Positions 26,500 through 40,754 of a DNA stretch of 64,000 nucleotides are shown here, piece by piece. How positions within the stretch are numbered: the first letter of the stretch is position 1; every line of letters begins with the position of its first letter. The notes beneath the pieces were generated by a model. It saw only the letters and a program-made list of their open reading frames with translations. It did no database searches and had not been told where the DNA came from. Origin of the DNA: an uncultured bacterium (GTDB taxonomy: Bacteria > Desulfobacterota > Binatia > UBA1149 > CAITLU01); the NCBI GenBank assembly GCA_903893315.1, contig CAITLU010000013.1, positions 155,026 to 219,025 of the forward strand. Reading direction: 5' to 3'. A program made the translations under genes and the position numbers.

Positions 26500-29183
26500 T
26501 GGCAACGCCGAAGCACATCGCTCTGTGGATCAGTGTTCTGCTTGCCGCTTTGTCGGCGGCGCCGCTGCATGCCGCCTGCACGGGCGGAGGAACTTCGGGC
26601 CTGGCCCCGCCGGCAGTTTCTTTCCTGCGCAGTTACCGCGCCCCGTTCGGTGCGCCGACTCGCATGGCGGTCGATGCTTCCGGAAAGATCTATGTGACCG
26701 ATCCCTCGCAGGGACAGGTCGTCGTGCGCGAAGCGAGCGGGCGGATCATCTCGCGTGCGACCGTCGCAACGCGCCCGGTGAGCGTCGCGGTCAACGCTGC
26801 CGGCCGCGTCTATGTTGGCGATTCAACTTCGGGCAGCGTCACCGCCTACGACTCAGAGTGGAACGCGGTGCTGCGATTCGGCCGGGGCGACGGCGAATTC
26901 CAGCAACCGAGCGATCTGTCGTTGGAAGCCGCCACCGGCGACGTCTACGTCGCCGACAGCGCGGCCCAACTGGTGAAGGTCTACAGCGCCGACGGCATTT
27001 TCCTGCGTTCATTCGGCGGGCAGGGTAACGGCGACGGCGAATTCAACTACCCGGTAGGCGTATTCGTCGACGCGCCTGCGCGCCGTGTGCTGGTAGCCGA
27101 CCAGCTCAACTATCGAATCCAGGTCTTCGATCTGAGCGGCACTTTCGTCAGTTGCTTCGGCGGGCACGGCAGCGGCGCGGGGAATTTCAACATGCCGCAG
27201 GGCGTGACGGTCGACGGCCTGGGCCGCGTGTACGTCGCCGATGCCGTCGAAGGACGCGTCCAGGTGCTCGACCGCAGCGGCGACTTCGTCGGCTTCATCG
27301 GTGACTTCGGCGACGACGCCGCGCAACTGCGCATTCCCATCGGCATGGTCATCGATCCGTCCAACAGGTTGTTCGTCGCCGCTTCCAACAACGCGCGTCT
27401 CGAAGTGTTCGGGCTCGACACCTTCGCCGATCCGGAAACCATCCTGCCCGCCGTGGTTCGGGTGGAGCCGGAAATGATCGAGCGGGCCACGCCGGGAAAC
27501 TCGATCGGCGCGTACCTGGAAGTGCCGGGATACATGCTCGACCGCATCGACGCCGCCAGCATTGTCGCGAACGGCGTTCCCGCGCTGCCGGGTACGAACT
27601 CGATCGGCGATGGGAATGGTGACGGCGTTGCCGACCTGCGCGTCGAGTTCGCTCCCACGGCTTTGCTGGCCACTCTTCCCGCCGGCGGCATCGGCGGCAT
27701 CGCCATCTCCGGAACTTTGTCCGGCATTCGCTTCGAGGGATCGACGACGGTTCGTGTGAGCACCTGCGGGCCCACCACGGTGTGCCCGCTCGGTGCAGCC
27801 GACCCTCAGTGCAACGAAGCCGTGTGCGACGCGGCAACCGGTTGCACCGTGCGGCCGAAAAACGACGGCGCCGGTTGCGAAGACGGCAGTGCCTGCACGA
27901 TGGACGACGTCTGCGCCGCTGGCATATGCACCGGTGCGACGCTGGCCTGCAACGACGTCAACGTCTGCACCGACGACGGCTGCGACACCGCTGCCGGTTG
28001 CGTCTTCGCCGCCAATACCGCGCCGTGCGACGACGCGAACGCCTGCACCACCGACGACACCTGTGCAGCACAAACCTGTTCGGGCGCGGCGATAACGTGC
28101 AACGACGGCAATGCCTGCACCGACGACGGCTGCGACACCGTGACCGGCTGCGTATTCGCCGCCAATAACGCACCGTGTGACGACGCGAGCATCTGCACCA
28201 CGGACGACACATGCGTGGACGGCGTCTGCACGGGAACGCGGATTTCCTGCAATGACGGCAACCTATGCACCGACGATGTCTGTGATCCGCTGGCCGGCTG
28301 CACGCACGCCGATAATCGCGGACCTTGTGACGACGGCGATCCGGGAACGGTAGCCGACACCTGCGACGGCAACGGTCTGTGCCGTGGCCAGACCGCGACA
28401 GGCCAATACGCGATCCTGCAGTGGCCCCCGGAATCGTCCGGGCGCCGGACGGTGACGATTGCGGCTCGTGGCCTGGTCGGCGGCAACGTGTGCGCCGAAA
28501 ACATCAGCATCGGCCGATCGGTCGAGGTGAACGGCGACGTTCTGGCCTGGTCGCCCGTCGATCGCGCGCTCAGCTTGCGTTCCGGCGTCTGGATCGACGG
28601 CAACGTCGTGAGCGGCGGCGGAGCGATTACCGGCCTCGAATTCGCAACCATCGGCGGCCTGGTCGATTCGGCCGGCGGCACCGCCGAATTCGAAGACTGC
28701 TTCGCTGCACGCTACCAAGCCGCGCAGCGCCGCGCCGAGTTCGTGACGTTGCTCCCCACGCCCGGAATGACCACGGGATCGCTGCGGCTCGGCGTGTTGG
28801 AAGAACGGCGAATTCCCGAGACGGGAGACGTCGGCAGCGGCCTGATCGTGATCGACGCCGACAGCATCAACCTGGCGACCTCGAGTCGGCTGACGATCGT
28901 CGGCGACGCATCAACCGAACAGGTCGTGGTCCGCGTTCGCGGCCGGCTTATCCTGGAACGCGGCGCGAGCATCGTCGTCGAAGGATTTCCGGCAGAGCGA
29001 CTGATCTTCGTGGTGGACGGAACAATCAACCTGCGGTTGCAGACGCGCGTCGATGGTTCGCTGTTCGGAGCCGGGACGGTCCGGATCGGCAGCGGCGGCG
29101 CGGTCAGCGGCGCGGTCATCGGCCGCACCGTCGACCTGGCTCATTCGGCAAGTATCAATCTGCAACCGTTCGTGGGGTGGTGA
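26499..29183 (+). CDS. Secreted NHL-repeat beta-propeller protein with cysteine-rich tandem repeats and a C-terminal beta-helix-like region
   Basis: The ATG overlaps the upstream TGA (ATGA). The signal peptide is MATPKHIALWISVLLAALSAAPLHAAC. NHL blades are present (YVADsxnxRVqVfD-like, about 6). Four repeats of about 51 aa follow, of the form CNDGNxCTDDGCDtxxGCvfaaNxxPCDDxxxCTTDDTC. A G/V/I-rich repetitive tail ends the protein. Confidence 0.8.
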   Translation: MATPKHIALWISVLLAALSAAPLHAACTGGGTSGLAPPAVSFLRSYRAPFGAPTRMAVDASGKIYVTDPSQGQVVVREASGRIISRATVATRPVSVAVNAAGRVYVGDSTSGSVTAYDSEWNAVLRFGRGDGEFQQPSDLSLEAATGDVYVADSAAQLVKVYSADGIFLRSFGGQGNGDGEFNYPVGVFVDAPARRVLVADQLNYRIQVFDLSGTFVSCFGGHGSGAGNFNMPQGVTVDGLGRVYVADAVEGRVQVLDRSGDFVGFIGDFGDDAAQLRIPIGMVIDPSNRLFVAASNNARLEVFGLDTFADPETILPAVVRVEPEMIERATPGNSIGAYLEVPGYMLDRIDAASIVANGVPALPGTNSIGDGNGDGVADLRVEFAPTALLATLPAGGIGGIAISGTLSGIRFEGSTTVRVSTCGPTTVCPLGAADPQCNEAVCDAATGCTVRPKNDGAGCEDGSACTMDDVCAAGICTGATLACNDVNVCTDDGCDTAAGCVFAANTAPCDDANACTTDDTCAAQTCSGAAITCNDGNACTDDGCDTVTGCVFAANNAPCDDASICTTDDTCVDGVCTGTRISCNDGNLCTDDVCDPLAGCTHADNRGPCDDGDPGTVADTCDGNGLCRGQTATGQYAILQWPPESSGRRTVTIAARGLVGGNVCAENISIGRSVEVNGDVLAWSPVDRALSLRSGVWIDGNVVSGGGAITGLEFATIGGLVDSAGGTAEFEDCFAARYQAAQRRAEFVTLLPTPGMTTGSLRLGVLEERRIPETGDVGSGLIVIDADSINLATSSRLTIVGDASTEQVVVRVRGRLILERGASIVVEGFPAERLIFVVDGTINLRLQTRVDGSLFGAGTVRIGSGGAVSGAVIGRTVDLAHSASINLQPFVGW
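27948..28390 (+). repeat. Intragenic tandem DNA repeat (about 150 bp unit, about 3 copies) encoding the cysteine-rich modules
   Basis: Units beginning tgcaacgacg...ctgcaccgacgacggctgcgacacc recur at 27948, 28098 and 28248, with decreasing identity. Confidence 0.6.
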
Positions 29184-29191
29184 AGACGTCG

Positions 29192-30580
29192 ATGGCATCG
29201 AAGCTGACAGCGTTCTCGTGGCTGCTCCTGACGTGGGCGGCGTACGCGTCGGGGCCGGCATACGCGCTCGACCCGCCGCACGACGTCAGTCGGTCGATCG
29301 ACTGCGCCAGTTGCCACATCTCGCACCATGCGGCGGGCGGCTCGATCACCCGGATCAGCGGTAACTCCAACCTGTGCGCGAGTTGCCACTCGGCCGGCGG
29401 CGTTGCGGCCACAAGCGCGCTCGCCAACAGCGACCAGGCGATCCCCGGCGTGAGCGGCACTTCACACCGCTGGGATTCCGGCGCGTCCGGCTGGGTGAAG
29501 AAGAATCCCGCCAACACCTCGACCGGAACGGTGCGCTCCACCGGCGTCTTCACCGGGCGCTATCGCAAGACCTACACGATCACCATCACCGCCGACGGTG
29601 TCGGCAACGCCGGTGGTGCCCAGTTCGCGTGGACCACGTCCACGCCGCAGCGCAATACGTACCTCGATGCGTTCCCAGCGCTGGCATACAACGGCAGCAG
29701 CGGCACGCAGGATTGGAGCGCAACCGCATGGCAGGAGAGCGGCGAGGCCGACGGCGTTGCCGCCGGCGTCGTGCGCGTCGTGACCAACGCCGCGTGCGCC
29801 GCCGGCAACTGCCTTCGCGTGGGCGGCGTAATCATCAACGGCATCAGCGTGGCGCGTGCGGCCGATCTTCACGCGGGCACGGCCGCCATGCTGACGTTCA
29901 GCTACCGCCGCCAGCTTGCTGCCTGTCCAAATACGAACACCGACGGGGTGGCGCTTCAGGTAAGCGCGGACGCTGTTTCGTGGACGACGCTGGCTACTTA
30001 CGTGCTGAACGCGTGCGATGCAGCGCAGGTGGAACAGGCCTTCGACGTCACGGCCTACATCGCGGCGACAACCGCGATTCGCTTCCTCGGTACCGGAACC
30101 AGCGCAGCCACCGACTTCATCTACGTCGACGACGTGCAGATTGAGAACCTCGTTGCCGGCGGCGGCGCCGCCGGCGTTTCGGCTGCCGGCACCGTAGCCC
30201 TCGACGAGGGCATCAGCGTGACGTTCGGCAACGGGACATCATCGCCCTACTTCAAGCTCGGCAGCCAGTGGACCGTCTACGCCAACCCGGACATCAACCA
30301 GCCGACGTCCTTCGCTCTTGCCGCGCGCCTGGCTAATGAAAAGGTCACCTGCTCCACCTGCCACAACGAGCACAGCCAGTTGGCTGAGCCGTTCGATCTG
30401 GCGGCGCCGGCCTACCCGTTGACGGGGAACGGCGGGGAGGGACGACACAACCAGCGTCTCGACAACGACATCAACCAGATATGCGTCGACTGCCACAGTG
30501 CGCGCAACGTCACCGCGGCGCAGAGTTCACATCCGGTGGGAATCGTCATCCCCGCCACCGGCTCGTACAAGAACCCATAG
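29192..30580 (+). CDS. Tetra-heme c-type cytochrome with a large non-heme central domain, secreted
   Basis: The signal peptide is MASKLTAFSWLLLTWAAYASGPAYA. Two CASCH motifs lie near the N-terminus, and CSTCH and CVDCH lie near the C-terminus. They flank about 300 aa of beta-rich sequence with no heme motif. Confidence 0.8.
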   Translation: MASKLTAFSWLLLTWAAYASGPAYALDPPHDVSRSIDCASCHISHHAAGGSITRISGNSNLCASCHSAGGVAATSALANSDQAIPGVSGTSHRWDSGASGWVKKNPANTSTGTVRSTGVFTGRYRKTYTITITADGVGNAGGAQFAWTTSTPQRNTYLDAFPALAYNGSSGTQDWSATAWQESGEADGVAAGVVRVVTNAACAAGNCLRVGGVIINGISVARAADLHAGTAAMLTFSYRRQLAACPNTNTDGVALQVSADAVSWTTLATYVLNACDAAQVEQAFDVTAYIAATTAIRFLGTGTSAATDFIYVDDVQIENLVAGGGAAGVSAAGTVALDEGISVTFGNGTSSPYFKLGSQWTVYANPDINQPTSFALAARLANEKVTCSTCHNEHSQLAEPFDLAAPAYPLTGNGGEGRHNQRLDNDINQICVDCHSARNVTAAQSSHPVGIVIPATGSYKNP

Positions 30581-30588
30581 GATCCACC

Positions 30589-31971
30589 ATGACGCGGCTC
30601 AACCGATTTCTCAGCGCGGCCTGCATTCTCCTGGCGTCATCGCTCGCCGGAATCGCCGCGGCCCAGACCCCGGCGCCGTTGCCTGCCGCTGCCTTTCCTC
30701 TGCCGCTCGACAAGAAGATGAACATGGTGCGCTGCACCACGTGTCACGACGCGCACTTCCAGAGCGGCGGCAACGGCATGCTGCTGCGCAGCGGCGACAT
30801 CAACGCTCTGTGCACCGATTGTCACACTCTGGCCGACACCGCTTCTCCGGCCGCGCACCTCGATCCCTCCACCGGCGTGCTGTGGCCCGGCCCGCAGTAC
30901 GGCACACTTTTCCCGCGCGTAACCGACACGTCACAGCGCGGCTTCTGCAGCAACTGTCACCAGGCGCACGGCTGGCCCGACGAGGCCAACGCGGGGCAGG
31001 ACTACCCATCGCTGCTGGTCAATCGCGAAGAGAACCTATGTTTCGCCTGTCACGACGGAAGCCCCGCGGCCAAGAACGTCATTGCCTCGTTCGCCAAGAG
31101 TTACCGCCACCCCACTACCGACTACAGCAACCGTCACACCACCACCGAGGACGGCGTAGCGGCAAACTTCGGCACGTCCAATCGTCACGCCGAATGCACG
31201 GACTGTCACGACGCCCACGTCGCCCGCGCCGACGCTACCGCACCGGTTGCGCCGGCGGCTTGGAACAGCATCCGCGGAGTCAGTCGAATCGCGGTCACCA
31301 ACGGCGCCGCCGGTACCGCGCCGGCGTACACATACCGCGGACCCACCGACACAACCGCGCCCGTGGCCGAATATCAGCTGTGTTTCAAGTGTCATTCGTC
31401 GTGGACCACCCGGCCCGCGGGCCAGTCGGACCTGGCCGTGCGTTTCAACACCAACAACCCCTCCTTCCACCCGGTGGAAGGTCAGGGCAAGAACCTCAAC
31501 ATCAACGTCAACTCCTTCGTGCCAGGCTGGAATGCGCTGCGCACGACATACTGCAGCGACTGTCACGCAGACAACGACGCGAGCGTGCGTGGCCCGCACG
31601 GCTCTCAGTACCGCTACCTGCTCAAACGGCCCTATGTGGCGAGCGGCGCGTCGCGCACGACCGCCGCAACCGAGGCGTGCTTCGACTGCCACACCTTTGC
31701 CACCTACGCTAGCACCGTGTCCAGCGACACCGTGCTTGGCTACAGCCGCTTCAACCGGCCCGGTTTTGAAGAAGGCCACTCTTTCCACGTCGTCAAAAAG
31801 GGGGCTCCCTGCTACGCCTGCCACGACTCGCACGCTTCCAGCACCAAGCCGCATCTGATCGTCACCGGCCGGGTTCCGGGTCTGAACAGCTACACCGAAA
31901 CGGCAACCGGCGGCAGTTGCTCCCCTACGTGCCATGGCACACAAACCTACAGGATAAACTATGCGCGCTGA
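30589..31971 (+). CDS. Deca-heme c-type cytochrome (paired-CXXCH, Geobacter-type), secreted
   Basis: The signal peptide is MTRLNRFLSAACILLASSLAGIAAA. There are nine CxxCH motifs plus one CxxxCH (CSPTCH). Confidence 0.85.
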   Translation: MTRLNRFLSAACILLASSLAGIAAAQTPAPLPAAAFPLPLDKKMNMVRCTTCHDAHFQSGGNGMLLRSGDINALCTDCHTLADTASPAAHLDPSTGVLWPGPQYGTLFPRVTDTSQRGFCSNCHQAHGWPDEANAGQDYPSLLVNREENLCFACHDGSPAAKNVIASFAKSYRHPTTDYSNRHTTTEDGVAANFGTSNRHAECTDCHDAHVARADATAPVAPAAWNSIRGVSRIAVTNGAAGTAPAYTYRGPTDTTAPVAEYQLCFKCHSSWTTRPAGQSDLAVRFNTNNPSFHPVEGQGKNLNINVNSFVPGWNALRTTYCSDCHADNDASVRGPHGSQYRYLLKRPYVASGASRTTAATEACFDCHTFATYASTVSSDTVLGYSRFNRPGFEEGHSFHVVKKGAPCYACHDSHASSTKPHLIVTGRVPGLNSYTETATGGSCSPTCHGTQTYRINYAR

Positions 31972-32394: not shown

Positions 32395-33486
32395 ATGAAT
32401 GTGGCGTTTCGCACAAGGTGGACGAGGGACGCACGTTTTGCGGTGAACACTGCGGCGCTCGCGTGGTGCATGGGCATGGTCGCGGGCTGCGCGGCACAGC
32501 AAAAGCCGCAGGACATGTTCTGGCCCGACCCTCCGGACAAGCCGCGCATCAGGTTCGTGCGCAACCTCCAATCCAAGAGCGATCTCGGCGCCCCGGCCTT
32601 GCTCGAAACGCTGGTCGGACGCGACAAGGAGCAGGCCCTTTACCAGCCGATGGGCCTTGCGCTTTCCGATGACTGCCAGCGCCTCTACGTAGCCGATCGG
32701 GTCTGGAACTCCGTTTTCGTTTTCGATTTCCAATCCAAGGCCGTGCGCACCATCGGAGGCGACGAGCGTTATCCGCTGACAATGCCGGTCGGCGTAGCCC
32801 TGGACGGGGACGAGAACGTCTACGTCGCCGATACCGGCACACGCACGGTCCGCGTCTACGACAAGACCGGAAAGTTTCTGCGCGGCATCGGCAAGGACCA
32901 GCTCGTGCGGCCGACGGGAATCACCATCGACGCAACGCGCGGGCGGCTCTACGTCGTCGACACCGGACAGAACGACACTCCCGAAGCGCACCGGGTGAAA
33001 GTATTCGACCTCGCGGGCGGCCTGATACGAGAGATCGGACGGCGCGGCGAAAGCGACGGCGAATTCAATTTCCCGACCTTCGCCAACCTCGACGCGCAAG
33101 GCCGGCTCTACGTCGTCGACTCCGTGAACAGCCGTATCCAGGTCTTCGATCCGGATGGGAAGTTCTTGTGGAAGTTCGGCAGTTCCGGCGACCACATCGG
33201 GAATTTCGCGCGCCCCAAGGGCGTGGCGGTCGACAGCTTCGGCAACATCTACGTGGTCGATTCGCGCTGGGGCAACGTGCAGATCTTCAACCAGCAGGGG
33301 CAGCTGCTGATGCTTTTCGCCGGAGTCGGAGAGTACCCCGGACTGATGATCAACCCCGGCGCCATCGTCATCGACCGCCACAATCGAATCTACGTCTCCG
33401 ACACGCTGGGGAGACGCGTGAGCATCTACGAACTCATCGGCACATCTGCCGAAGACAGCCTCGAGTCACGGGGCACAGCGCCATAA
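32395..33486 (+). CDS. NHL-repeat beta-propeller lipoprotein
   Basis: The lipobox is MVAGC. Six NHL-like blades are present (LYVADrvwNsVfVFD, VYVADTGTRTVRVYD, LYVVDTGQ..., LYVVDSVNSRIQVFD, IYVVDSRWGNVQIF, IYVSDTLGRRVSIYE). Confidence 0.8.
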   Translation: MNVAFRTRWTRDARFAVNTAALAWCMGMVAGCAAQQKPQDMFWPDPPDKPRIRFVRNLQSKSDLGAPALLETLVGRDKEQALYQPMGLALSDDCQRLYVADRVWNSVFVFDFQSKAVRTIGGDERYPLTMPVGVALDGDENVYVADTGTRTVRVYDKTGKFLRGIGKDQLVRPTGITIDATRGRLYVVDTGQNDTPEAHRVKVFDLAGGLIREIGRRGESDGEFNFPTFANLDAQGRLYVVDSVNSRIQVFDPDGKFLWKFGSSGDHIGNFARPKGVAVDSFGNIYVVDSRWGNVQIFNQQGQLLMLFAGVGEYPGLMINPGAIVIDRHNRIYVSDTLGRRVSIYELIGTSAEDSLESRGTAP

Positions 33487-33604
33487 GCCGCTGGGGGAGG
33501 GGCGTATTCCGGCGAATGATGCGCGAAGTCGGACATCGAGAAATACAAACGAAGCTAGAGAGCGTGAAACGAACAGACGGAAAGGAACGATAGGAGGTTC
33601 CATC

Positions 33605-34255
33605 ATGAAAAGAGGAAGATCATTATTAATCGCCGCATCCTTGCTGGTGCCAACCATGGCGTCGGCGGGGACCATCGCCAACACGAAGCACGACTTGAGC
33701 GCGACCTCGACCGCGGTGATCAAGTCGGGGACTCAAACCGACACCTGCGTGTTCTGCCACGTATCGCACAGCAGCGCTCCGGGCGTGGCGCGGCCGTTGT
33801 GGAGCCACACGATGACCACCCAGAACCTGACCTGGGCGCCGACCACGACGGTGCGCGGGACGGTACTGCCGACCGCGATCACCAGCGCAGCGCTGACCGG
33901 CTCACGTTCATGCATGAGTTGTCACGACGGGACAGTCGCGCTCGGCGATCTGCTCAACGGAACCGGCGGCACCGTCAGCGGAACCAACGTCACGGCCGGC
34001 AAGCTGACCGGTGGCATCAACCTGCTCAACCCGGCATCGATGCAGAGCAACCATCCGATCGGTGTTGCCAAGCCGGCGGCGGCCACCGGCTTCACGGCCT
34101 TCAAGACCGTCGCGGCCAGCAGCCCCGTCAACTACGATTCGTCCGGTTTCGTACAGTGCGACTCGTGCCACAACCCGCATGACAACACCTTCGTGCCGTT
34201 CCTGAGGATCAGTCCGGCGGGCGGTGCGATCTGCACCTCCTGCCACGACATCTGA
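33605..34255 (+). CDS. Tetra-heme c-type cytochrome, small secreted (216 aa)
   Basis: A strong RBS (taggagg) sits 8 nt upstream of ATG 33605. The signal peptide is MKRGRSLLIAASLLVPTMASA. CVFCH, CMSCH, CDSCH and CTSCH are present. The N-terminal motif TKHDLS...CxxCHxSH...PLW is shared with the 39045 cytochrome. Confidence 0.85.
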   Translation: MKRGRSLLIAASLLVPTMASAGTIANTKHDLSATSTAVIKSGTQTDTCVFCHVSHSSAPGVARPLWSHTMTTQNLTWAPTTTVRGTVLPTAITSAALTGSRSCMSCHDGTVALGDLLNGTGGTVSGTNVTAGKLTGGINLLNPASMQSNHPIGVAKPAAATGFTAFKTVAASSPVNYDSSGFVQCDSCHNPHDNTFVPFLRISPAGGAICTSCHDI

Positions 34256-34352
34256 CCACGGTGCCAATGCGGCGGAGAATGCCCTCTAGTGATTGGGATT
34301 CCCCGCCGCAACGGTCTAGTAGTTGACCCCTGGAGTTCGGACCCGGGGGGGC

Positions 34353-34682
34353 ATGGTGACGAGTAGAAACTTCTGCGGAATCCTTTCGCTCGTCGTTCTG
34401 TGCGTGTCGCTCGTTGCAGCGCCGGGATCGGCAACCACGCTCGGCGACATCATCTACTCGCGCAAAGCCGGCCCGGGAGATTGGGCCCCGGCCTACTTCC
34501 CGCACTGGGTCCATCGCATCAAGTACAAGTGCTACGCGTGCCACGACACGCTGTTCCCCATGCGGCGCGGCGGTAATCCGACAATGGCGGGGATGTCGAC
34601 CGGCGCTTCGTGCGGCGCGTGTCACAACGGCAAGACTGCCTTCGGGCTGGACACCTGCCAGCGATGCCACGTTTCGCAATGA
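34353..34682 (+). CDS. Tri-heme cytochrome c7 (PpcA-like periplasmic carrier)
   Basis: A signal peptide is followed by FPHWVHRIKYKCYACH...CGACHNGKTAFGLDTCQRCH. The three CxxCH motifs have c7 spacing. The mature protein is about 80 aa. Confidence 0.85.
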   Translation: MVTSRNFCGILSLVVLCVSLVAAPGSATTLGDIIYSRKAGPGDWAPAYFPHWVHRIKYKCYACHDTLFPMRRGGNPTMAGMSTGASCGACHNGKTAFGLDTCQRCHVSQ

Positions 34683-35938
34683 GGCACCGCGCGACGATCT
34701 GCATGATCGTCGCGCTCGTCGCGGCTGCCGGAGGCTGCAGCCGCGAAACGCGCTACCGCGCGCTCGACGTTTTGTTCGAGGGCGTCCCGCCACCCGGCCA
34801 GGTCGTCAGCAACGAACCGGTCACGCATCGTCCTCGTCGTTCGCCTCCACCTCCTCCGATTCCGCCTCCCGTCGCGTTCACGCCGCTGCCGCCCAACGCA
34901 GGCCTCGCGTCGCTGCAAACCTGGGACGACGTCGTGCGACTGCTGCCCAAAGACCAGGCCGGCAATCCGGACTGGACTGCGGCGGTCGACGAAAAAATGA
35001 TCGCCCCGCGTTCCGTACTGGACCCCGACTCCGCGGAGTCGGAAGCGATCACTCTTGACGCCCTCGATGCTTCGTCGGTCGCTCCGGATGTCGAACTCGC
35101 CGCCAAGTCGGATCCGGCTTTCGATGTCTCCTTCTCACACCGGAAGCACGGGACCTGGCTGAGCTGCGGGAACTGCCACCCTGCCCCCTTCGAGAAGAAA
35201 GCCGGGCAGACGCCGATGACCCCGGCCAGCGTGCACGCACAAGAGTACTGCGCTGCCTGTCACGGCAAGGTCGCGTTCGACATCGGACCCAATTGCCTGT
35301 CGTGCCACCTTCGCACCATGCCGCGCGACGCGGCCGGACAGGTAGATTGGAATCGCGCACTGGATGAGCAGCGCATCGCGCCGCGCCCTGGACCGGGATC
35401 TAAAACCGTCGATCAGGAGGTTCTCAAACTCGATATAGAAATGACGCCGCCGGCCCAGCCCGCGTTTGCGTCGGTATTTTCACACGGCACACACACGCGG
35501 TTGATAGCTTGCGCCAGTTGCCATCCGAGTCCCTACTCGGCCAAGGTTCGCACGGCGATGACCGACACCGCCGAACTGCATTCGTCCCGCTATTGCGGTT
35601 CCTGCCACGGCACGGTGTCGTTTGGAATCACCGGATTCTGTCAGCGCTGCCACCCGGCTCTCGAAAAAGCGCGTCAGCACCAGGAAACTCTGGACCTCGA
35701 TGTGGCGGTGACGCCCAAGGCGCAGACCGGCGGCGCCACGACGTTCTCGCACAAGCAGCACCGCTGGGTGGAGTGTGCCACCTGTCACAGCAACCTCTTC
35801 ACCAACACGCCGGGGGCAACCACCATGCCGAAGGCCGATATCTACGGCGGCAAGTACTGCGCCCCCTGCCACGGCAAGGTGACCGACGATCTCACCGTCA
35901 GTTGCCGGCGCTGTCATTCGGGCGGTGACGCCCGATGA
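34679..35938 (+). CDS. Nona-heme lipoprotein cytochrome (three tandem c7-type domains behind a Pro-rich linker)
   Basis: The ATGA overlap is with the c7 gene. The lipobox-like sequence is VALVAAAGGCS, followed by a PPPPPIPPP linker. The module FSH(x)xH...CxxCH...YCxxCHG...CxxCH is repeated three times. Confidence 0.85.
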   Translation: MRHRATICMIVALVAAAGGCSRETRYRALDVLFEGVPPPGQVVSNEPVTHRPRRSPPPPPIPPPVAFTPLPPNAGLASLQTWDDVVRLLPKDQAGNPDWTAAVDEKMIAPRSVLDPDSAESEAITLDALDASSVAPDVELAAKSDPAFDVSFSHRKHGTWLSCGNCHPAPFEKKAGQTPMTPASVHAQEYCAACHGKVAFDIGPNCLSCHLRTMPRDAAGQVDWNRALDEQRIAPRPGPGSKTVDQEVLKLDIEMTPPAQPAFASVFSHGTHTRLIACASCHPSPYSAKVRTAMTDTAELHSSRYCGSCHGTVSFGITGFCQRCHPALEKARQHQETLDLDVAVTPKAQTGGATTFSHKQHRWVECATCHSNLFTNTPGATTMPKADIYGGKYCAPCHGKVTDDLTVSCRRCHSGGDAR

Positions 35939-35963
35939 CCGGCAGCACACTTGCGGCATCGTG

Positions 35964-37979
35964 ATGAAGCGCGCCGCACGGCCAGCGATCGCGTGCGGCG
36001 TTCTCGCGTGCATGGTGCTCACCATCACGCCTGCGGCCGAGGCCGGACTGAACTGGGGGCTGGGTCGCTGGGAAGGCGACACCACGCTTCTCGTGAACTG
36101 GGAAACCCAGCACGACAAACGGACTCAGGACCGTTACGACACGCTTCTCTTCGAAGAGCGCCTGCGTCTGCGCAACACCGGCGCCTTCATCTTCGATCCG
36201 CGCTTGCTGACGCTCAATCTCAGCGGATCGTTCGGAGCGCCTCAGGAAATGGCGCTGGGGCACACCGACACGTCGCTGCGGGTGGGCAACGGAACTCTGT
36301 TCGACTATGCCTTCGAGGGCCTGGTCCTGGCGGATACGGCTTACCCGACCACTCTGTTCGCCACCCGCAGCCAGACCATGCTTACGCAGGGCTTCGGCGG
36401 TCGCTCTGATCTGACCTTCCAGAGCTTCGGCGGCACCTTCGATCTGCACGAAAACAATTTCCTCGAGGCCCGCGGGTGGCGCGGATTGACCGCGACGCTG
36501 GACGCCCGCGAGGAGTCGCTCCTCGAAAATTCGTCGTATTTCGGCAGTCCGTTCAAACGCGACGAGACCCGACAGATAGTCAACGCGCAGGCGCACCGCT
36601 CCGGCGAGAACTCGGACCTCGATCTGCACTACGAACTCAACTCCGTAAGCGACCCGCTCAACCCGTCGAACGTATTCGACAGCCACACATTTCGTGCGAC
36701 TCACAGTCTCGACTTCGGTCCCACGCTCAACCGGCGCCTCGACTCGGGACTCTATTCCTTCATCCGCAGCGGCGCATCGAACGGCAGTTACGTGTCGGCG
36801 AGCGAGGCTCTGCACGTCGACCACCATCGCGACTTCTCGACCAACTATCGCTACGACTTTTCCCAGAGCGATTCGGAATCCGGCACCACCACTACCAATA
36901 CCGCCAACGCCACGCTGCTGAGGCGGTTCTATCGCAACCTCTCGACCACGCTCGGCGCGCGCGGATCACTGCAGAATTTCCCGAACGGCGACAAGTACCT
37001 TTACGGAGGCGAGGCCGGCGCCGACTACCGGCGCGCGATTCCCGGCCAGGGGCAACTGTTCGCGGACACCCACCTCGGTTACGAGGTTGACAACAACAAC
37101 TTCACCTCGTCGTTCGTCGATGAACCCGACGAAAGGCAGACGGTTCCAATCGATGTCGGCACCGGCGCCGGGTTCACCCTGACTCATCCATTCGTGGTCA
37201 TCGGATCGATCGTGGTGGTCGACCTCGGTCCCGACGGCAACTCGCGCTTCGACACCATCGTCAACCGGGACTACCTCGTCGTCGCGGAAGGCAGCCGCAC
37301 CCGGATCGTGCCGTTGCCCGACAGCCCCGTGCTTCGCGCCGGCGATCAGTTGTCGGTGAGCTACACCTACACCATCGCGCCCAGTCTCGAGTATTCAACC
37401 TTCGACACGAGCATACGCACCGGTCTGGAATTCCCGTGGCTTTCGCTATCCTACGAACACATGATGAGCGATCAGACGCGTCTGTCCGGGACTTCCGCCC
37501 CGCAATTCCTGATCGATCAGAACGCGGACCGGTTTCAACTCGAGCTGAGGAGCCGGTGGAAACGCCTGCTCGCGCAATCGGCGGTCGATTACGAAATTCT
37601 CAAATCGTCGATCGTCGACTCCAACGGATTGCGCTTCGGCCAACTTCTCGTCTACCAAATCAACGCCGGCCTGGTCGCGGAGTTGACCGCTGACGAGAAC
37701 TTCGTCGACTACCCGAAAGAAAATCGCAGTTCCGAGTCCTACCTGGCGCGGGCTTCGATCGACTGGACGGCCTTCGAAGGGCTTTCCGCTTCGCCTTTCA
37801 TCGACTACCGTAGTTTTCACGACTCGACCGTCATGAGCGACGTTGTCGTCGAGGCCGGAATGCGCCTGCACTGGACCTATCGAAGCGTGGACATCTTCCC
37901 AACTGTCACCTGGACCGACTATCGCAACAGGATGGATGGCGTTCATGCCGAACTGCGCATCACCCGACGTTTCTTCTGA
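35964..37979 (+). CDS. Outer-membrane beta-barrel protein (putative porin of a porin-cytochrome conduit)
   Basis: The signal peptide is MKRAARPAIACGVLACMVLTITPAAEA. The protein is about 670 aa with Y/T/S/G/N-rich alternating beta-strand texture. The C-terminal ...ELRITRRFF ends in an aromatic Phe, the OMP sorting signature. Confidence 0.7.
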   Translation: MKRAARPAIACGVLACMVLTITPAAEAGLNWGLGRWEGDTTLLVNWETQHDKRTQDRYDTLLFEERLRLRNTGAFIFDPRLLTLNLSGSFGAPQEMALGHTDTSLRVGNGTLFDYAFEGLVLADTAYPTTLFATRSQTMLTQGFGGRSDLTFQSFGGTFDLHENNFLEARGWRGLTATLDAREESLLENSSYFGSPFKRDETRQIVNAQAHRSGENSDLDLHYELNSVSDPLNPSNVFDSHTFRATHSLDFGPTLNRRLDSGLYSFIRSGASNGSYVSASEALHVDHHRDFSTNYRYDFSQSDSESGTTTTNTANATLLRRFYRNLSTTLGARGSLQNFPNGDKYLYGGEAGADYRRAIPGQGQLFADTHLGYEVDNNNFTSSFVDEPDERQTVPIDVGTGAGFTLTHPFVVIGSIVVVDLGPDGNSRFDTIVNRDYLVVAEGSRTRIVPLPDSPVLRAGDQLSVSYTYTIAPSLEYSTFDTSIRTGLEFPWLSLSYEHMMSDQTRLSGTSAPQFLIDQNADRFQLELRSRWKRLLAQSAVDYEILKSSIVDSNGLRFGQLLVYQINAGLVAELTADENFVDYPKENRSSESYLARASIDWTAFEGLSASPFIDYRSFHDSTVMSDVVVEAGMRLHWTYRSVDIFPTVTWTDYRNRMDGVHAELRITRRFF

Positions 37980-38001
37980 TCCGCCTTGCGGCACCCGGCC
38001 G

Positions 38002-39048
38002 GTGGCTGCGGCCGGCCGGCGCTGGGCGCGCGGACTGGCGTTGGCGGCGCCGGCCCTGCTCGCTGCGGCCGCGGCTGCCTGCTCGTCGGGTTGGCCGACC
38101 CACGGCCAGCCCGCGGAGCCCGCGCGGATGGTGTGGCCCGAAGCGCCGGACGCGCCTCGCATAGAACTGGTTTCCACGTTCAGCGCCGGCTCCGATCTCG
38201 GCATCGAACTCTCCATATGGTCGCGTATTGCCAACGTCATTTCAGGCGGCGGCGAAACGCGGATGGTACGCCCCAGCGGCGTGAGTGCCGCCGGCGGACG
38301 CATCGCGGTGGCCGATCCGGGAGCCGGACTCGTTCACCTCTACGATCCGGCCCGCCGCCGCGCTCTGGCGCTGCGCGAGTGTGGTGACACGGCGCTCGCA
38401 GAGCCGGTCAGCGCAATTCTGCTCGGCGAGCGCCTGTACGTGGCCGACGCGAGCGCGGCGCGCATTTTCGTATTCGATCTCGACGGCGCCTGCATAGCCG
38501 GCTGGCCGCTTGAAGAGGGATCGCGTCCGGCCGGGTTGGCGGCCGACCCCGCGCGGTCGAGAATCTACGTGGCGGAAGCCGCATTACATCGCGTCGTCGT
38601 CTACGATCCACAGGGCAACAGAGTTCTGGAAATCGGCCGCCGCGGCGCCGCGCCCGGCCAGTTCAATTATCCAACTTGGCTGGCAGTAGACGACGCCGGT
38701 AACATATACGTAACGGACGCGCTCAACTTCCGGGTGCAGATCTTCGATCCGGAGGGCCGGCCGACCGGCGTCTTCGGTGAGCAAGGCGACGCCTCCGGAG
38801 CGCTGTCGCGACCAAAGGGCATAGGTATCGATCGTCATGGGCACATCTATCTGGTCGATGCTCTTTTCGACGCCGTGCAGATGTTCGATCGCGAGGGCCA
38901 CTACCTGATGGTCTTCGGCGGCAGCGGCCGCGAGCCGGGGCTTTTCTGGCTTCCTTCCGGCCTCGCCGTCGATGGCGACCGCATCTACGTTTCGGACTCG
39001 TACAATCAGCGGGTGCAGGTGTTCCGCTTCCTGGCAGACGAGTCATGA
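38002..39048 (+). CDS. NHL-repeat beta-propeller protein (probable lipoprotein)
   Basis: The GTG start gives MAAAGRRWARGLALAAPALLAAAAAAC-SSG. The NHL blades are LYVADASAARIFVFD, IYVAEAALHRVVVYD, IYVTDALNFRVQIFD, IYLVDALFDAVQMFD and IYVSDSYNQRVQVF. Confidence 0.75.
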   Translation: MAAAGRRWARGLALAAPALLAAAAAACSSGWPTHGQPAEPARMVWPEAPDAPRIELVSTFSAGSDLGIELSIWSRIANVISGGGETRMVRPSGVSAAGGRIAVADPGAGLVHLYDPARRRALALRECGDTALAEPVSAILLGERLYVADASAARIFVFDLDGACIAGWPLEEGSRPAGLAADPARSRIYVAEAALHRVVVYDPQGNRVLEIGRRGAAPGQFNYPTWLAVDDAGNIYVTDALNFRVQIFDPEGRPTGVFGEQGDASGALSRPKGIGIDRHGHIYLVDALFDAVQMFDREGHYLMVFGGSGREPGLFWLPSGLAVDGDRIYVSDSYNQRVQVFRFLADES

Positions 39049-40754
39049 CGCTGCGCCTGTTCGCCTGTCTCGCCGTTCTCTTGATGCTGGCCGCGGCCGG
39101 CGCGGCCCAAGCCGGCCTGCGTGAGACCGCGCACAACCTGAGCCCGAGTGCAGTCGGAGGCCGCTCCTCAGCTTCCGCAGCCGTGGCTCCATCTATCGAC
39201 GGTACCGACAGCGACCTCTGCGCGTATTGCCACACGCCACACTCGGCAAAGACCCAGCGCGGTCTGTGGAGCCGCGCTCTGGCGCCCGCGCGCTACAAGC
39301 TCTACGAGAGCAGCACCACCGAAGCGAAACTGCAGCAACCGAACGGAAGCTCGCGTCTGTGTCTGTCCTGCCACGACGGCACCATGGCCGCCGGATCGAC
39401 GTCGCGTCAGGGTGGAGCGGCGGTCAGCAAGTTGACCGGTCGCAGCGTGCTCGGCACCGATCTTTCCGACGACCACCCCATCTCGTTCGTCTACGATCAA
39501 TCACTGGTCACCCGGCGACGGGATCTCGCCAACCCGGCGTCCCTGATCGGCGGTGTCCGCCTCGACTCGAGCGCGCAGGTCCAGTGCACCTCGTGTCACG
39601 ACGCGCACGCAGACCGTCATCCGCAATTCCTCGTCGCCGATCCCGCGTTTTCGCGACTGTGCCTGACCTGCCACCGGCCGCAGCACTGGCAGGAATCGGC
39701 ACACGCGACTTCACCGACCAGTGCTCTCGGCGCCGGATCGTTGCCCGGGCTGGGCTACGCGACCGTCGGCGAAAATGGCTGCTCGAGCTGCCATCGCTCC
39801 CACGGCGCCGAGCACCCTCAGCGCCTGCTCACATCAGCAACGGAAGAAGGGGTCTGCTTCAATTGTCACGACGGCCGCATCGCCGAGAAGGATATGCGGC
39901 GCGAATCGCGCAAGTTCAGCGCGCATCGAGTCGACGTGTACACCGATGTCCACGACCCGACCGAAAACCCCAACCACATGCCGATGCACGTCGAGTGCAT
40001 CGACTGCCACAACGCTCACGCAGCGCGCGCCGACTCCGGCGGCGGACCGATGCCCGGCCCTCTCACCGGTGTATCGGGCGTGACCGTCTCCGGCGGTTTC
40101 GTGCGCGAGGCGACTTTCGAGTACGAAGTCTGTCTGAAGTGCCACGGAATAAGCGAAGCGCGCGACCCAGTGGTGTTCCGCAACGACAGCCCGAGCAATC
40201 TGCGGATGAAGATCAACCCGCAGAACGTCTCGTTTCACCCCATCGCCGACGTCGGCCGCAACCCCACCATCGCGGGCCTGGTCTCGCCGTGGACTCCGGC
40301 CAGCCGTACGTCGTGCACCGCGTGTCACGACAACAACTCCGCCGACCGCAGCGCACCGCGCGGACCGCATGGTTCCAATTACCGACCTATCCTCGCTGCC
40401 GAGTATCACCTCGACGCGACGCCGGGCAGGGAGTCATATCAACTCTATGCCCTGTGTTATCGCTGCCATGACCGCAATACGCTGCTCGACCGCCACGAAG
40501 GCTTCCCGCACCGGTCGCACGTCGTCGACGACGGCGCGAGCTGCGCCGTCTGTCACGACGCTCACGGTTCGCCCCACAACGCGCACCTGATCAATTTCAT
40601 GCGCCGCGACCTTACCGGCAAGGAGGTCGTGCTGCCGTCCGTCAAGACCGGCCGCCTCGAATACATATCGAATGCGCCGGGGTCAGGTCAGTGCTCGCTC
40701 AGTTGCCACGGATACGATCACAACGACGCGAAGTATCCTTCACAAGGCAGGTAG
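39045..40754 (+). CDS. Dodeca-heme c-type cytochrome, secreted
   Basis: The ATGA overlap is with the upstream NHL gene. The signal peptide is MTLRLFACLAVLLMLAAAGAAQA. There are eleven CxxCH motifs plus CSLSCH. The N-terminal TAHNLS...CAYCHTPH...LW motif is present. Confidence 0.85.
   Translation: MTLRLFACLAVLLMLAAAGAAQAGLRETAHNLSPSAVGGRSSASAAVAPSIDGTDSDLCAYCHTPHSAKTQRGLWSRALAPARYKLYESSTTEAKLQQPNGSSRLCLSCHDGTMAAGSTSRQGGAAVSKLTGRSVLGTDLSDDHPISFVYDQSLVTRRRDLANPASLIGGVRLDSSAQVQCTSCHDAHADRHPQFLVADPAFSRLCLTCHRPQHWQESAHATSPTSALGAGSLPGLGYATVGENGCSSCHRSHGAEHPQRLLTSATEEGVCFNCHDGRIAEKDMRRESRKFSAHRVDVYTDVHDPTENPNHMPMHVECIDCHNAHAARADSGGGPMPGPLTGVSGVTVSGGFVREATFEYEVCLKCHGISEARDPVVFRNDSPSNLRMKINPQNVSFHPIADVGRNPTIAGLVSPWTPASRTSCTACHDNNSADRSAPRGPHGSNYRPILAAEYHLDATPGRESYQLYALCYRCHDRNTLLDRHEGFPHRSHVVDDGASCAVCHDAHGSPHNAHLINFMRRDLTGKEVVLPSVKTGRLEYISNAPGSGQCSLSCHGYDHNDAKYPSQGR

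Follow-up and report, generated by a model that had tools for sequence, protein, structure and literature searches.

The DNA stretch analysed here (the window, 64,000 nucleotides from an uncultured Binatia bacterium) carries three genes for NHL-propeller proteins interspersed with genes for multiheme cytochromes. This arrangement raises the question of what the propellers do for their cytochrome neighbours, and whether they form fixed stoichiometric pairs with them, as the initial annotation proposed.

Gene organisation of the cytochrome and propeller region

The two propeller genes of main interest, NHL2 and NHL3, had been placed at the positions listed in Table 1, and the ends of the open reading frames agree with them. 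As had also been noted, each of the three NHL genes is located directly 5' of a cytochrome gene, with 4 CXXCH motifs in the case of NHL1, 4 in the case of NHL2 and 11 in the case of NHL3. An ATGA overlap with the following cytochrome gene had been claimed for two of these junctions. The overlap is present between NHL3 and cyt11 (39045-39048), whereas the NHL1/cyt4a junction has either a GTGA overlap, if GTG 29180 is the start codon, or an 8-nt gap, if ATG 29192 is used.

Table 1. Features of the cytochrome and NHL-propeller region, in positions of the window
Feature	Position	Strand	Properties
Membrane cytochrome b, FdnI / Ni-hydrogenase cytb family	23831..24907	+	PF01292, E 4.4e-13
18-heme c7/c3-type multiheme cytochrome	24997..26499	+	18 CXXCH; Pfam Cytochrome_C7; start uncertain
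NHL1, 894-aa mosaic, third NHL gene	26499..29183	+	Lipobox HAA/C
cyt4a, 4-CXXCH cytochrome	29180..30580	+	Pfam Paired_CXXCH_1; start GTG 29180 or ATG 29192
cyt9a, 9-CXXCH (+ CX4CH) cytochrome	30589..31971	+	Pfam MtrC/MtrF II-IV domain, Paired_CXXCH
NHL2, six-bladed NHL beta-propeller lipoprotein	32395..33486	+	363 aa; ATG start, TAA stop; lipobox MVAG/C
cyt4b, OmcE-family tetraheme c-type cytochrome	33605..34255	+	216 aa; 4 CXXCH, 9 His
Small triheme c7-type cytochrome	34353..34682	+	109 aa; Pfam Cytochrome_C7, E 1.3e-15
Nine-heme lipoprotein, three c7-type triheme domains	34679..35938	+	9 CXXCH
Large outer-membrane beta-barrel	35964..37979	+	671 aa from ATG 35964; GTG 35961 alternative start
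NHL3, six-bladed NHL beta-propeller lipoprotein	38002..39048	+	348 aa; GTG start, TGA stop; lipobox AAAA/C
cyt11, undecaheme, UetJ-like	39045..40754	+	569 aa; 11 CXXCH + one CX4CH

In the upstream part (23831-31971), the membrane cytochrome b matched TIGR01583 (E 1.9e-22) without reaching the family cutoff, and it is probably the quinone-pool link of the pathway. The stop codon of the 18-heme gene overlaps the NHL1 start (TGATG). According to Pfam, NHL1 starts with an NHL propeller, continues with Cys-rich Dicty_CTDC-like repeats and ends in DUF7305; it shares 33% identity with NHL2 over 255 aa, its propeller is slightly closer to the NHL3 type (32%) than to the NHL2 type (28%), and a homolog of it is present in locus L006. 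In cyt4a, an insert of about 320 aa separates two doubled-CXXCH units. An OmcE-like HMM matched these units only, the PDB sequence search with cyt4a returned no relative, and cyt4a is not a full OmcE-like domain. The following gene, cyt9a, is paralogous to cyt11 over the C-terminal two thirds of the latter (31% identity over 432 aa by blastp, residues 178-556 of cyt11, E 1e-41).

A non-coding gap of 423 nt (31972-32394) precedes NHL2. With this gap, the 17-kb stretch may not be co-transcribed as a whole, and what had been called the operon is probably two modules. The second one, from 32395 to 40754, is conserved and comprises NHL2, the OmcE-family tetraheme, the c7 trihemes, a barrel of about 29 strands, NHL3 and the undecaheme.

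NHL2 and NHL3 are six-bladed propeller lipoproteins

The six NHL blades attributed to each protein were borne out by motif counts, Pfam and an AlphaFold2 model of NHL3. PF01436 (NHL) matched NHL2, NHL3 and NHL1 with E values of 3.9e-25, 1.9e-28 and 6e-27, respectively, and all three also matched DUF5128 ('6-bladed beta-propeller'). Six xYVxD strand motifs are present in NHL2, and an RxQVFD-type motif follows five of them. In NHL3, regular expressions retrieved five strand motifs and five RxQVFD-type motifs, and the fifth blade reads IYLVD...AVQMF. The NHL3 model (pLDDT 91.9) contains 24 strands, i.e., six blades of four, and the last strand of blade 6 is the conserved N-terminal strand 54-60. 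In NHL2, the closing strand of the propeller is supplied by the N-terminal motif FWPDPPDKPRIRFV.

Both lipoboxes were likewise found where they had been proposed. A lipobox-like Cys is present in 49 of 58 NHL2-type and 63 of 81 NHL3-type orthologs, and an Asp after this Cys is absent in NHL2 and NHL3 and rare among orthologs. When 30 homologs were aligned, Cys27, W45, P46 and P49 of NHL3 were invariant; the motif WPxPPxxPRI is invariant alongside the lipobox Cys, and both are also found in NHL361 of Geobacter. No CXXCH was found in NHL2 or NHL3. The two proteins share 36% identity over 319 aa, NHL3 has 1689 homologs at E<=1e-10, and the NHL2 and NHL3 types are two separate, ancient orthogroups.

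In the Foldseek search with the NHL3 model, the best structural matches were NHL domains of TRIM2/3, Thin, Brat and PknD, with those of TRIM2/3 and Thin at the top (TMt 0.81-0.84). These matches bear on the idea that the propellers are six-bladed hydrolases or lyases, like PAL, SMP-30/gluconolactonase, paraoxonase or virginiamycin B lyase, which modify or mature the cytochromes or the cell surface. The distant structural matches did include PAL and virginiamycin B lyase, and Pfam gave weak matches to SGL, Arylesterase and MRJP. However, the best matches in both sequence and structure are NHL domains that bind protein or RNA (TRIM2/3/71, Thin, Brat and the PknD sensor) with E values of 1e-49 to 1e-20, compared to 5e-6 for PAL. 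Moreover, most of the residues invariant in the 30 homologs belong to the structural consensus of the NHL repeat, and a three-His or acidic metal-site pattern was not evident among the residues of the sequence alignment. We regard an enzymatic role as very improbable.

NHL3 is followed by an undecaheme gene in related loci

Related loci were collected by a search of genome contigs, and the best 80 of at least 533 matches were compared. In these 80, the order NHL2, cyt4b, c7, barrel, NHL3, cyt11 recurs, and the loci span Binatia, Gamma-, Beta- and Alphaproteobacteria, Thermodesulfobacteriota, Myxococcota, Omnitrophota, Nitrospinota, Rokubacteria and others. As the initial annotation had anticipated, the homologs of the NHL lipoproteins are cytochrome-linked: among the best 80 matches, an undecaheme gene directly follows the NHL3 ortholog in 70 of 72 loci from many phyla. 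In the same 80 best matches, 35 of 76 NHL3-undecaheme junctions overlap and 26 more are at most 50 nt long (61 of 76). The adjacency of NHL3 and the undecaheme gene is near-invariant and usually translationally coupled.

Residues 7-211 of cyt11 form an OmcE-like tetraheme domain, which matched 7TFS (E 8.7e-22) and the OmcE-like HMM (iE 1.2e-49). Among the cyt11 orthologs of the best 80 matches, this N-terminal domain is present in 69 of 69, and exactly 11 CXXCH motifs are present in 67 of 69.

NHL2 is adjacent to an OmcE-family tetraheme gene

The tetraheme cyt4b matched the OmcE nanowire subunits 9YUQ (E 3.8e-23) and 7TFS (E 5.5e-22) over its full length, with all eight conserved His in place in the alignments, and it is 34% identical to OmcE of G. 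sulfurreducens. OmcE-family tetrahemes are the subunit type of extracellular cytochrome nanowires in Geobacter and Desulfuromonas (bioRxiv 10.1101/2025.10.22.684050; PMC12016550), and cyt4b is a UetA-like candidate filament subunit. Since the tetraheme belongs to this filament-subunit family, a 1:1 ratio of NHL2 to tetraheme is unlikely, and any fixed stoichiometry would be unlikely for NHL2 if the tetraheme polymerises.

NHL2 and cyt4b are separated by 118 nt with a GGAGG ribosome site. Among the best 80 matches, an OmcE-like gene adjoins the NHL2 ortholog in about 50 of 54-58 cases; NHL2 lies before the tetraheme gene in 37-38 of these loci and after it in 11-13, and the gap has a median of 187 nt, with 1 of 38 junctions overlapping. 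The adjacency is conserved but uncoupled, and translational coupling almost never occurs. In G. sulfurreducens, the protein encoded directly upstream of omcE (NHL361, locus L081) shares 34% identity with NHL2 over 319 aa (E 3e-52) and scored 329 bits with the NHL2-type HMM versus 293 bits with the NHL3-type HMM. This Geobacter gene and NHL2 belong to one orthogroup.

The outer-membrane barrel and the c7-type cytochromes

The AlphaFold2 model of the barrel (pLDDT 86.8) has about 29 long antiparallel strands and a small insert (395-471). The barrel matched no Pfam and no NCBIfam family, and its structural matches (Cir/FepA, MtrB, LptD) have low TM scores throughout. By tblastn, a barrel gene lies immediately 5' of the NHL3 ortholog in 39 of 69 loci from the best 80 matches. 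A profile of 43 barrel orthologs had no significant similarity to the 752-aa protein of the Geobacter omcE cluster (E 0.04). The C-terminus of the barrel reads ...RRFF, and the Geobacter protein also ends in FF.

The triheme c7 gene, situated between the tetraheme and nine-heme genes, is an addition to the earlier description of the region. Its stop codon has an ATGA overlap with the start of the nine-heme lipoprotein gene, and homologs are present in most related loci among the best 80 matches. TIGR04257 (nanowire_3heme) matched the nine-heme lipoprotein in three stretches (E 2.9e-41), and this protein is probably a periplasmic electron carrier, UetD/E/G-like but fused.

Co-variation of the propellers with their neighbours

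Distance-matrix (mirror-tree) correlations were calculated for 31 taxa. The partial Mantel correlations were 0.55 for NHL3-cyt11, 0.55 for NHL2-barrel and 0.42 for NHL2-cyt4b (each p=5e-4), values which a shared recombination history, and not binding alone, may also produce. The NHL-cytochrome cross pairs gave partial correlations of 0.12-0.16.

Such adjacency could be the outcome of cluster co-inheritance only, the propellers being generic scaffolds or barrel-assembly partners (an LptE- or SusD-like plug or lid) with no specific pairing. The barrel correlates with NHL2 no less strongly than any cytochrome does, the raw distance correlations within the cluster are all high (0.57-0.85), and the structural neighbours of the barrel include large barrels that have lipoprotein partners (LptDE, SusCD, XusAB). 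However, the partial correlation between barrel and NHL3 is low (0.15) despite their adjacency, and the adjacency of NHL2 and the OmcE-like gene outlasts order flips and holds in Geobacter. Furthermore, six loci (L016, L031, L045, L060, L066 and L071) have an NHL3-undecaheme(-c7) unit in whose vicinity neither NHL2 nor an OmcE-like gene nor a barrel was detected, and L008 has a second NHL-undecaheme pair. Co-inheritance as the sole explanation is unlikely. The conserved adjacency, the co-variation and the corresponding NHL-omcE arrangement in G. sulfurreducens together support specific NHL:cytochrome partnerships; the dedicated pairing that had been proposed stands in this form, without the stoichiometry.

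The same observations weigh on a further possibility, namely that the propellers are surface-exposed adhesion or mineral-binding modules (for Fe/Mn oxides, sulfides, electrodes or partner cells) and not cytochrome-specific assembly factors. This idea comes from suggestions in the literature, including the attribution of Gmet_0556 to adhesion, and NHL-like designed 'Pizza' propellers that bind metals or polyoxometalates were among the structural matches. Nevertheless, the two separate orthogroups each keep to a cytochrome gene of their own, NHL3 and the undecaheme are translationally coupled, and the co-variation with cyt11, cyt4b and the barrel is specific, none of which would be expected of a generic adhesin. 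In addition, the organisms that carry the cluster differ widely in their substrates, and intracellular sulfur-oxidising symbionts are among them. We consider adhesion quite unlikely.

Proposed role of NHL2 and NHL3

The reading that we favour, and hold to be reasonably probable, is that NHL2 and NHL3 serve an outer-membrane cytochrome system of the OmcE/Uet type as its two conserved accessory lipoproteins, which are non-redox and act as docking or assembly factors. Given that no Asp follows the Cys, each propeller would be lipid-anchored to the outer membrane, under Lol sorting rules which are not established for Binatia, and one propeller face would serve as a protein-binding platform. NHL3 may bind the undecaheme at about 1:1 and hold or position it at or in the barrel. 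NHL2, together with the barrel and the OmcE-like subunit, may act as a docking or hand-over (chaperone/usher-like) factor that would be needed for export, anchoring or ordered polymerisation, and would not be a stoichiometric component of the filament. The upstream genes for cytochrome b and the 18-heme, NHL1, 4-heme and 9-heme proteins probably connect the module with the quinone pool and contribute a second, diverged NHL-cytochrome unit. Judged by sequence, the pathway could serve electron uptake as well as disposal.

Comparison with known systems

In its parts, the segment from NHL2 through the 11-heme gene matches both the nanowire cluster around omcE in Geobacter/Desulfuromonas and the Uet cluster known from Tenderiales/Gallionella, each of which is reported to have two NHL/beta-propeller proteins. 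Clusters of this widely conserved type serve bacteria in electron transfer across the outer membrane. In the omcE clusters of Geobacter, Desulfuromonas and Geoalkalibacter, an NHL gene likewise lies directly 5' of an OmcE-family tetraheme gene with a large barrel after it, and its product shares with NHL2 the lipobox and the N-terminal motif FWPPxPxxPRI, besides the identity given above. The layout in G. sulfurreducens and Desulfuromonadales is cyt-cyt-NHL-omcE-barrel, and in the Geobacter loci examined Pfam detected a single NHL gene at a distance of up to 10 kb from omcE. In the smallest omcE clusters, a pair of beta-propeller lipoproteins and a large barrel are described as always present, 'putatively functioning as a secretion or anchor' (bioRxiv 10.1101/2025.10.22.684050). 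Further multiheme cytochromes are common to both; those of the window are the triheme, nine-heme and eleven-heme genes, accompanied by the second propeller, NHL3. However, Binatia is outside the five phyla named in that study, the window is without a glycosylation gene block, and the 8- and 9-heme proteins of Geobacter contrast with the c7 trihemes and the undecaheme with its OmcE-like N-domain.

By description, the Uet cluster of Ca. Tenderia electrophaga and Gallionella (PMC10734462) has the same parts, namely a tetraheme, c7 trihemes, a barrel of about 28 strands and two NHL proteins, and an 11-heme cytochrome gene directly after an NHL gene: UetH and UetI are NHL proteins adjoining the undecaheme UetJ (bioRxiv 10.1101/2022.05.06.490989). 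In contrast to the window, where NHL2 opens the module and three triheme domains are fused, the two NHL genes are adjacent in uetA-J. No domain of a UetB-type peptidyl-prolyl isomerase or a UetF-type cupredoxin was found by Pfam and NCBIfam in the genes from 23831 to 39048.

NHL genes interleaved with multiheme cytochrome genes are also described in Desulfovibrio ferrophilus IS5, where the NHL proteins are co-expressed with outer-membrane cytochromes (PMC5815863), and DFE_0451 and DFE_0463 are proposed stabilisers of an outer-membrane cytochrome complex (PMC5815863; PMC9769857). Among the best 80 matches, related Thermodesulfobacteriota loci have the tetraheme upstream of the first NHL gene.

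In the osc/omcS cluster of G. sulfurreducens, the nanowire cytochrome gene likewise has an NHL protein gene as its neighbour, and channel-like and folding factors are encoded with them. The resemblance is one of analogy: the filament there is built of the hexaheme OmcS, which has no sequence relationship to OmcE, and PDB sequence searches with cyt4a, cyt4b, cyt9a and cyt11 for an OmcS-family hexaheme gave only OmcE entries or nothing. OscD is reportedly propeller-like. For GSU2505, the NHL protein beside omcS, a requirement in the assembly or expression of OmcS has been proposed (PMC9070056), and PMC13194489, citing Shen et al. (2025), proposes roles of the osc genes in nanowire folding, secretion and morphology.

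A porin-cytochrome conduit of the Mtr/Pio kind was considered and rejected, with TIGR03508 (MtrA/DmsE) matches far below the cutoff and a TM score of 0.33 to MtrB (6r2q_B). LptDE, SusCD and chaperone-usher pili offer an analogy in combining a very large barrel, dedicated lipoproteins and a polymerising exported subunit; however, they share no homology with the window beyond a low-TM barrel resemblance, and the window is without a periplasmic Ig-fold chaperone. A porin or usher analogy for such barrels has been raised in the literature. Earlier accounts of the Uet, D. ferrophilus, omcE and omcS clusters include NHL genes beside cytochrome genes; the OmcE/Uet cluster type and its propeller genes are already known, and the pattern seen here is not new.

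Propeller lipoproteins of the putative operon

The genes on the + strand from approximately 23831 to 40754, whose start and stop codons were checked, form a same-strand run. Housekeeping genes border it, with priA, fmt and rsmB at one end and rpe, terB-dnaJ and glnA at the other. NHL2 and NHL3 matched the Pfam NHL family (E 3.9e-25 and 1.9e-28, respectively) and the "6-bladed beta-propeller" family DUF5128, as did the N-terminus of NHL1, the 894-aa protein encoded at 26499-29183. NHL2 was 36% identical to NHL3 (319 aa, E 4e-64) and 33% identical to NHL1 (255 aa).

Features of the putative NHL-cytochrome operon in window coordinates
Feature	Position	Strand	Description
Membrane cytochrome b and 18-heme cytochrome	upstream of NHL1 unit	+	domain matches
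NHL2	32395-33486	+	ATG...TAA, 363 aa
OmcE-like tetraheme (cyt4b)	33605-34255	+	216 aa, four CXXCH, just after NHL2
Triheme c7 cytochrome	34353-34682	+	109 aa, between tetraheme and nine-heme lipoprotein genes
Barrel protein	35964-37979	+	671 aa, without Pfam or NCBIfam family
NHL3	38002-39048	+	GTG...TGA, 348 aa
Undecaheme cytochrome (cyt11)	39045-40754	+	569 aa, directly after NHL3

The six blades that the initial annotation gave to NHL2 and NHL3 were recovered in both. NHL2 has six xYVxD strand motifs, with an RxQVFD-type motif after five of them, and the AlphaFold2 model of NHL3 (30 homologs, pLDDT 91.9) has 24 strands, corresponding to six blades. By regex, NHL3 has five motifs of each type, and its fifth blade reads IYLVD...AVQMF; in the model, blade 6 is closed by a conserved N-terminal strand (54-60) after a WPxxPDxPRI motif. 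Both proteins are predicted lipoproteins, as had also been proposed, with lipobox-type signal peptides whose Cys is invariant among 30 homologs. Heme motifs are absent from the propellers. The possibility that they are enzymes was judged unlikely from the invariant residues among 30 homologs and from the Foldseek matches of the NHL3 model, which were the NHL domains of TRIM2/3, Thin, Brat and PknD. The C-terminal part of NHL1 (27650-29183), possibly a surface-exposed extension, combines Cys-rich Dicty_CTDC-like repeats with a C-terminal DUF7305 domain.

Cytochromes, barrel and gene junctions

The tetraheme cyt4b was homologous over its full length to the OmcE nanowire subunits 9YUQ (Desulfuromonas soudanensis, E 3.8e-23) and 7TFS (G. 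sulfurreducens OmcE, E 5.5e-22), and all eight conserved heme-ligand His are present. It has a ninth His, His68 in WSH, compared to eight in both solved OmcE subunits; nine His were also found in 25 of 52 cyt4b orthologs within the best 80 of at least 533 related loci. Petersen et al. (bioRxiv 10.1101/2025.10.22.684050) proposed a filament "stopper" role for a nine-His, four-heme OmcE-like protein. A GC-rich hairpin (GCGGCGG...CCGCCGC, 34268-34309) lies directly 3' of the OmcE-like gene and recalls the stem-loops after major pilin genes, but the 97-nt spacer around it was not significantly more stable than shuffled sequence (z -1.7; 15 of 200 shuffles did as well). The stop codon of the triheme c7 gene shares ATGA with the next start codon, and this gene is easily overlooked among spurious high-GC ORFs. 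The nine-heme lipoprotein that follows has three TIGR04257 triheme domains.

The AlphaFold2 model of the outer-membrane barrel protein (pLDDT 86.8) has approximately 29 strands and an inserted mini-domain of approximately 75 residues (395-471). It resembled Cir/FepA, MtrB and LptD at low TM only, and a word-indexed search returned 44 database relatives at E<=1e-5. The undecaheme cyt11 is composite. An entire OmcE-like domain spans residues 7-211 (7TFS E 8.7e-22; profile iE 1.2e-49) and keeps all eight conserved His, and the part at residues 178-556 is a paralog of the nine-heme protein encoded at 30589-31971 (31% identity, E 1e-41); by its domain content, cyt11 is a fusion-like protein. Elsewhere in the window, a PilQ-like secretin gene (PF00263; 12927-16372, - strand) adjoins a fused shikimate kinase/3-dehydroquinate synthase gene, which appears to be the common pilQ-aroKB arrangement, unrelated to the cytochrome operon.

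Each of the three NHL genes lies directly upstream of a multiheme cytochrome gene, as initially described; the downstream genes have 4, 4 and 11 CXXCH. An ATGA overlap had been claimed for two of these pairs. It is present at the NHL3/cyt11 junction, but the junction after the 894-aa gene reads GTGA and overlaps only if GTG 29180 is the start codon; with the alternative ATG 29192, the two genes are 8 nt apart. The distance from NHL2 is 118 nt to the cytochrome gene downstream and 423 nt to the preceding gene. A promoter/terminator scan of 23000-41500 gave nothing beyond shuffled expectation, no Rfam family was found within the operon, and no conserved motif was seen when the region upstream of NHL2 was aligned among the window and five Binatia loci. 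RNA hairpins after NHL2 (z -0.9), cyt4b (z -1.7) and cyt11 (z -0.4) were no better than shuffles.

Pairing of the propellers with cytochromes

One genome per species was scanned for NHL3 relatives, and the best 80 loci of at least 533 matches were kept, to which the locus counts below refer. The NHL homologs were cytochrome-linked in this survey. In 70 of the 72 loci whose sequence extends at least 1.5 kb downstream, a cyt11 homolog came directly after NHL3; of the other two, one had a split copy and one none. Exactly 11 CXXCH were found in 67 of 69 complete genes downstream of NHL3, and the OmcE-like N-terminal domain in all 69 complete undecaheme orthologs. The end of NHL3 overlapped the start of the cytochrome gene in 35 of 76 pairs, and in 26 more the two were no more than 50 nt apart. 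Moreover, in six of the 80 loci NHL3 and the undecaheme (with or without c7) stood alone, with no NHL2, tetraheme or barrel detectable nearby, and one locus (L008) carried a second NHL-undecaheme pair. NHL3 and the undecaheme are thus a near-invariant and, as read from these junctions, translationally coupled pair. The propellers as adhesin or mineral-binding modules is a less well supported reading.

Where at least 7 kb of upstream sequence was present (57 loci), 54 loci had a second NHL gene. The OmcE-like gene lay after it in 37 (38 in a second tally) and before it in 11 (13). Their junction was rarely coupled (median gap 187 nt, overlap in 1 of 38), which would suit a highly expressed polymer subunit. 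In three related loci the OmcE-like gene occurs in two to three tandem copies after NHL2 (L003 4776-6145, L004 4883-6201, L023 3920-6830). The NHL2-type and NHL3-type proteins fell into two orthogroups, the nearest neighbour being of the same type in 57 of 58 and 81 of 81 cases, respectively; on this sequence evidence, they are two ancient propeller orthogroups with different putative partners.

Co-variation was assessed by partial correlations of distance matrices in the 31 taxa carrying all five proteins, with the other three proteins controlled for and a permutation test. The values were 0.55 for NHL3-cyt11, 0.55 for NHL2-barrel and 0.42 for NHL2-cyt4b (p 5e-4 each), while the cross pairs gave 0.12-0.21 and the adjacent barrel-NHL3 pair only 0.15. 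This support is weak and may partly reflect recombination history. That the propellers are generic barrel partners is likewise less well supported. Of the fixed stoichiometric NHL:cytochrome pairs first proposed, the pairing itself is supported in part by the conserved adjacency, the orthogroups and the co-variation, but a fixed 1:1 complex of NHL2 and tetraheme is argued against, since their junction is uncoupled and the neighbour comes from a filament-subunit family. The NHL-cytochrome association is real and non-random.

The upstream NHL1 unit

The four-heme protein encoded directly after NHL1 was rejected as OmcE-like: the OmcE-like profile matched nothing in it but the doubled-CXXCH units, and it had no PDB relative. 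Therefore, the statement that every NHL gene precedes an OmcE-type domain is true only for NHL2 and NHL3. The NHL1, four-heme and nine-heme genes (26499-31971) resemble a second, diverged NHL-cytochrome unit, given that the nine-heme protein is paralogous to the C-terminal part of cyt11. The unit is carried by one related locus (L006). In another (L005), an 18-heme cytochrome homolog lies approximately 280 nt upstream of NHL2, and no homolog of NHL1 or of the four-heme and nine-heme genes was detected between them. As it was not detected there, the unit seems to have been inserted in some Binatia.

Distribution of the module

The closest proteins came from Candidatus Binatia and "Deltaproteobacteria" MAGs. 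The best 80 loci cover Binatia, Acidiferrobacterales, Ectothiorhodospiraceae, Thiobacillus, Sulfuritalea, Rubrivivax, Kiloniellales, Thermodesulfobacteriota, Myxococcota, Omnitrophota, Nitrospinota, Rokubacteria, Thiodiazotropha and tubeworm endosymbionts, and the module of NHL2, OmcE-like tetraheme, c7 trihemes, barrel, NHL3 and undecaheme was near-universal among them (tblastn with the window proteins). The whole module was seen in 11 loci (L009, L015, L018, L023, L032, L037, L038, L042, L047, L051, L052) from Ca. Thiodiazotropha of lucinid clams, Escarpia and Lamellibrachia tubeworm endosymbionts and one Sedimenticolaceae MAG. Chemosynthetic symbionts are not an obvious place to expect a cluster of the extracellular-electron-transfer type.

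Discussion

Export, anchoring, start and stop of nanowires and outer-membrane cytochrome complexes are open matters in extracellular electron transfer. Among the non-redox genes of the omcE/Uet-type clusters, those for NHL lipoproteins show the most consistent conservation, and to our knowledge no such lipoprotein has been characterised. The propellers would serve as outer-membrane-anchored protein-binding platforms. NHL3 and the undecaheme most likely form a roughly equimolar complex, given their translational coupling, near-invariant adjacency and co-variation, and NHL3 would place the undecaheme at the barrel; NHL2 is most likely a docking or hand-over factor whose partners would be the barrel and the OmcE-like protein. 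More speculatively, the OmcE-like N-domain of the undecaheme could dock onto the end of an OmcE-type filament, which makes this protein a candidate base or cap.

A bolder and rather doubtful proposal is that NHL2 and NHL3 are subunit-specific periplasmic adaptors that serve OmcE-type cytochrome filaments in a pathway of the chaperone/usher kind. The undecaheme, with its OmcE-like N-domain and seven-heme extension, would be held by NHL3 as the barrel-associated base or cap; NHL2 would bring tetraheme subunits to the barrel, and these would polymerise on the undecaheme by the same His-to-heme hand-over. If this were true, the Uet electron-uptake and omcE nanowire clusters would be one ancient machine, present in many more phyla than the five already listed, Binatia and chemosynthetic animal symbionts included. 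The initiator or anchor for which the structural work on OmcE finds no candidate in Desulfuromonadia operons would then also be provided.

The G. sulfurreducens OmcE sequence was rebuilt from the 7TFS alignment and used as the query for the protein and its locus. This locus carries purHDE, a ppc-like c7, resB, ccsB, and nine-heme and eight-heme proteins, then a 361-aa NHL protein, OmcE, a 752-aa protein without Pfam family whose C-terminus is FF, and glycosyltransferases; the layout was identical in a Desulfuromonadales MAG. The NHL protein of Geobacter carries a lipobox and the motif FWPPLPERPRIEW, and it was 34% identical to NHL2 (319 aa, E 3e-52). Its score was 329 bits against the NHL2-type profile and lower, 293 bits, against the NHL3-type one. 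The barrels of the window and of the Geobacter omcE cluster had no detectable sequence similarity.

Several NHL proteins have been linked to cytochromes before. Those of D. ferrophilus are co-expressed with outer-membrane cytochromes and were proposed as complex stabilisers (PMC5815863; PMC9769857), Geoalkalibacter has an OmcE homolog and two NHL proteins (PMC12016550), and GSU2505, an NHL protein adjoining omcS, was suggested to be necessary for OmcS assembly (PMC9070056). OmcS folding, secretion and morphology have been credited to the osc operon (PMC13194489). Petersen et al. (bioRxiv 10.1101/2025.10.22.684050) already described the NHL/barrel association with OmcE, used the barrel and propeller lipoprotein as markers for nanowire-competent OmcE homologs in five phyla, Binatia not among them, and left filament secretion, initiation and termination as open questions. 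The window is a new Binatia example of an already described cluster kind; what it adds is a sharper set of partner assignments that can be tested, together with the apparent unity of Uet and omcE. The uetABCDEFGHIJ cluster of Tenderiales (bioRxiv 10.1101/2022.05.06.490989) comprises a tetraheme (UetA), a PPIase (UetB), a 28-strand barrel (UetC), triheme c7 proteins (UetD/E/G), a cupredoxin (UetF), NHL proteins (UetH/I) and an undecaheme (UetJ), and the cluster also occurs in Gallionella (PMC10734462). Within their searchable text, the Uet and OmcE papers do not name each other's system. Our comparisons suggest that the electron-uptake Uet and metal-reducing omcE clusters are one system, which bears on the annotation of metagenomes, those of sulfur-oxidising symbionts included.
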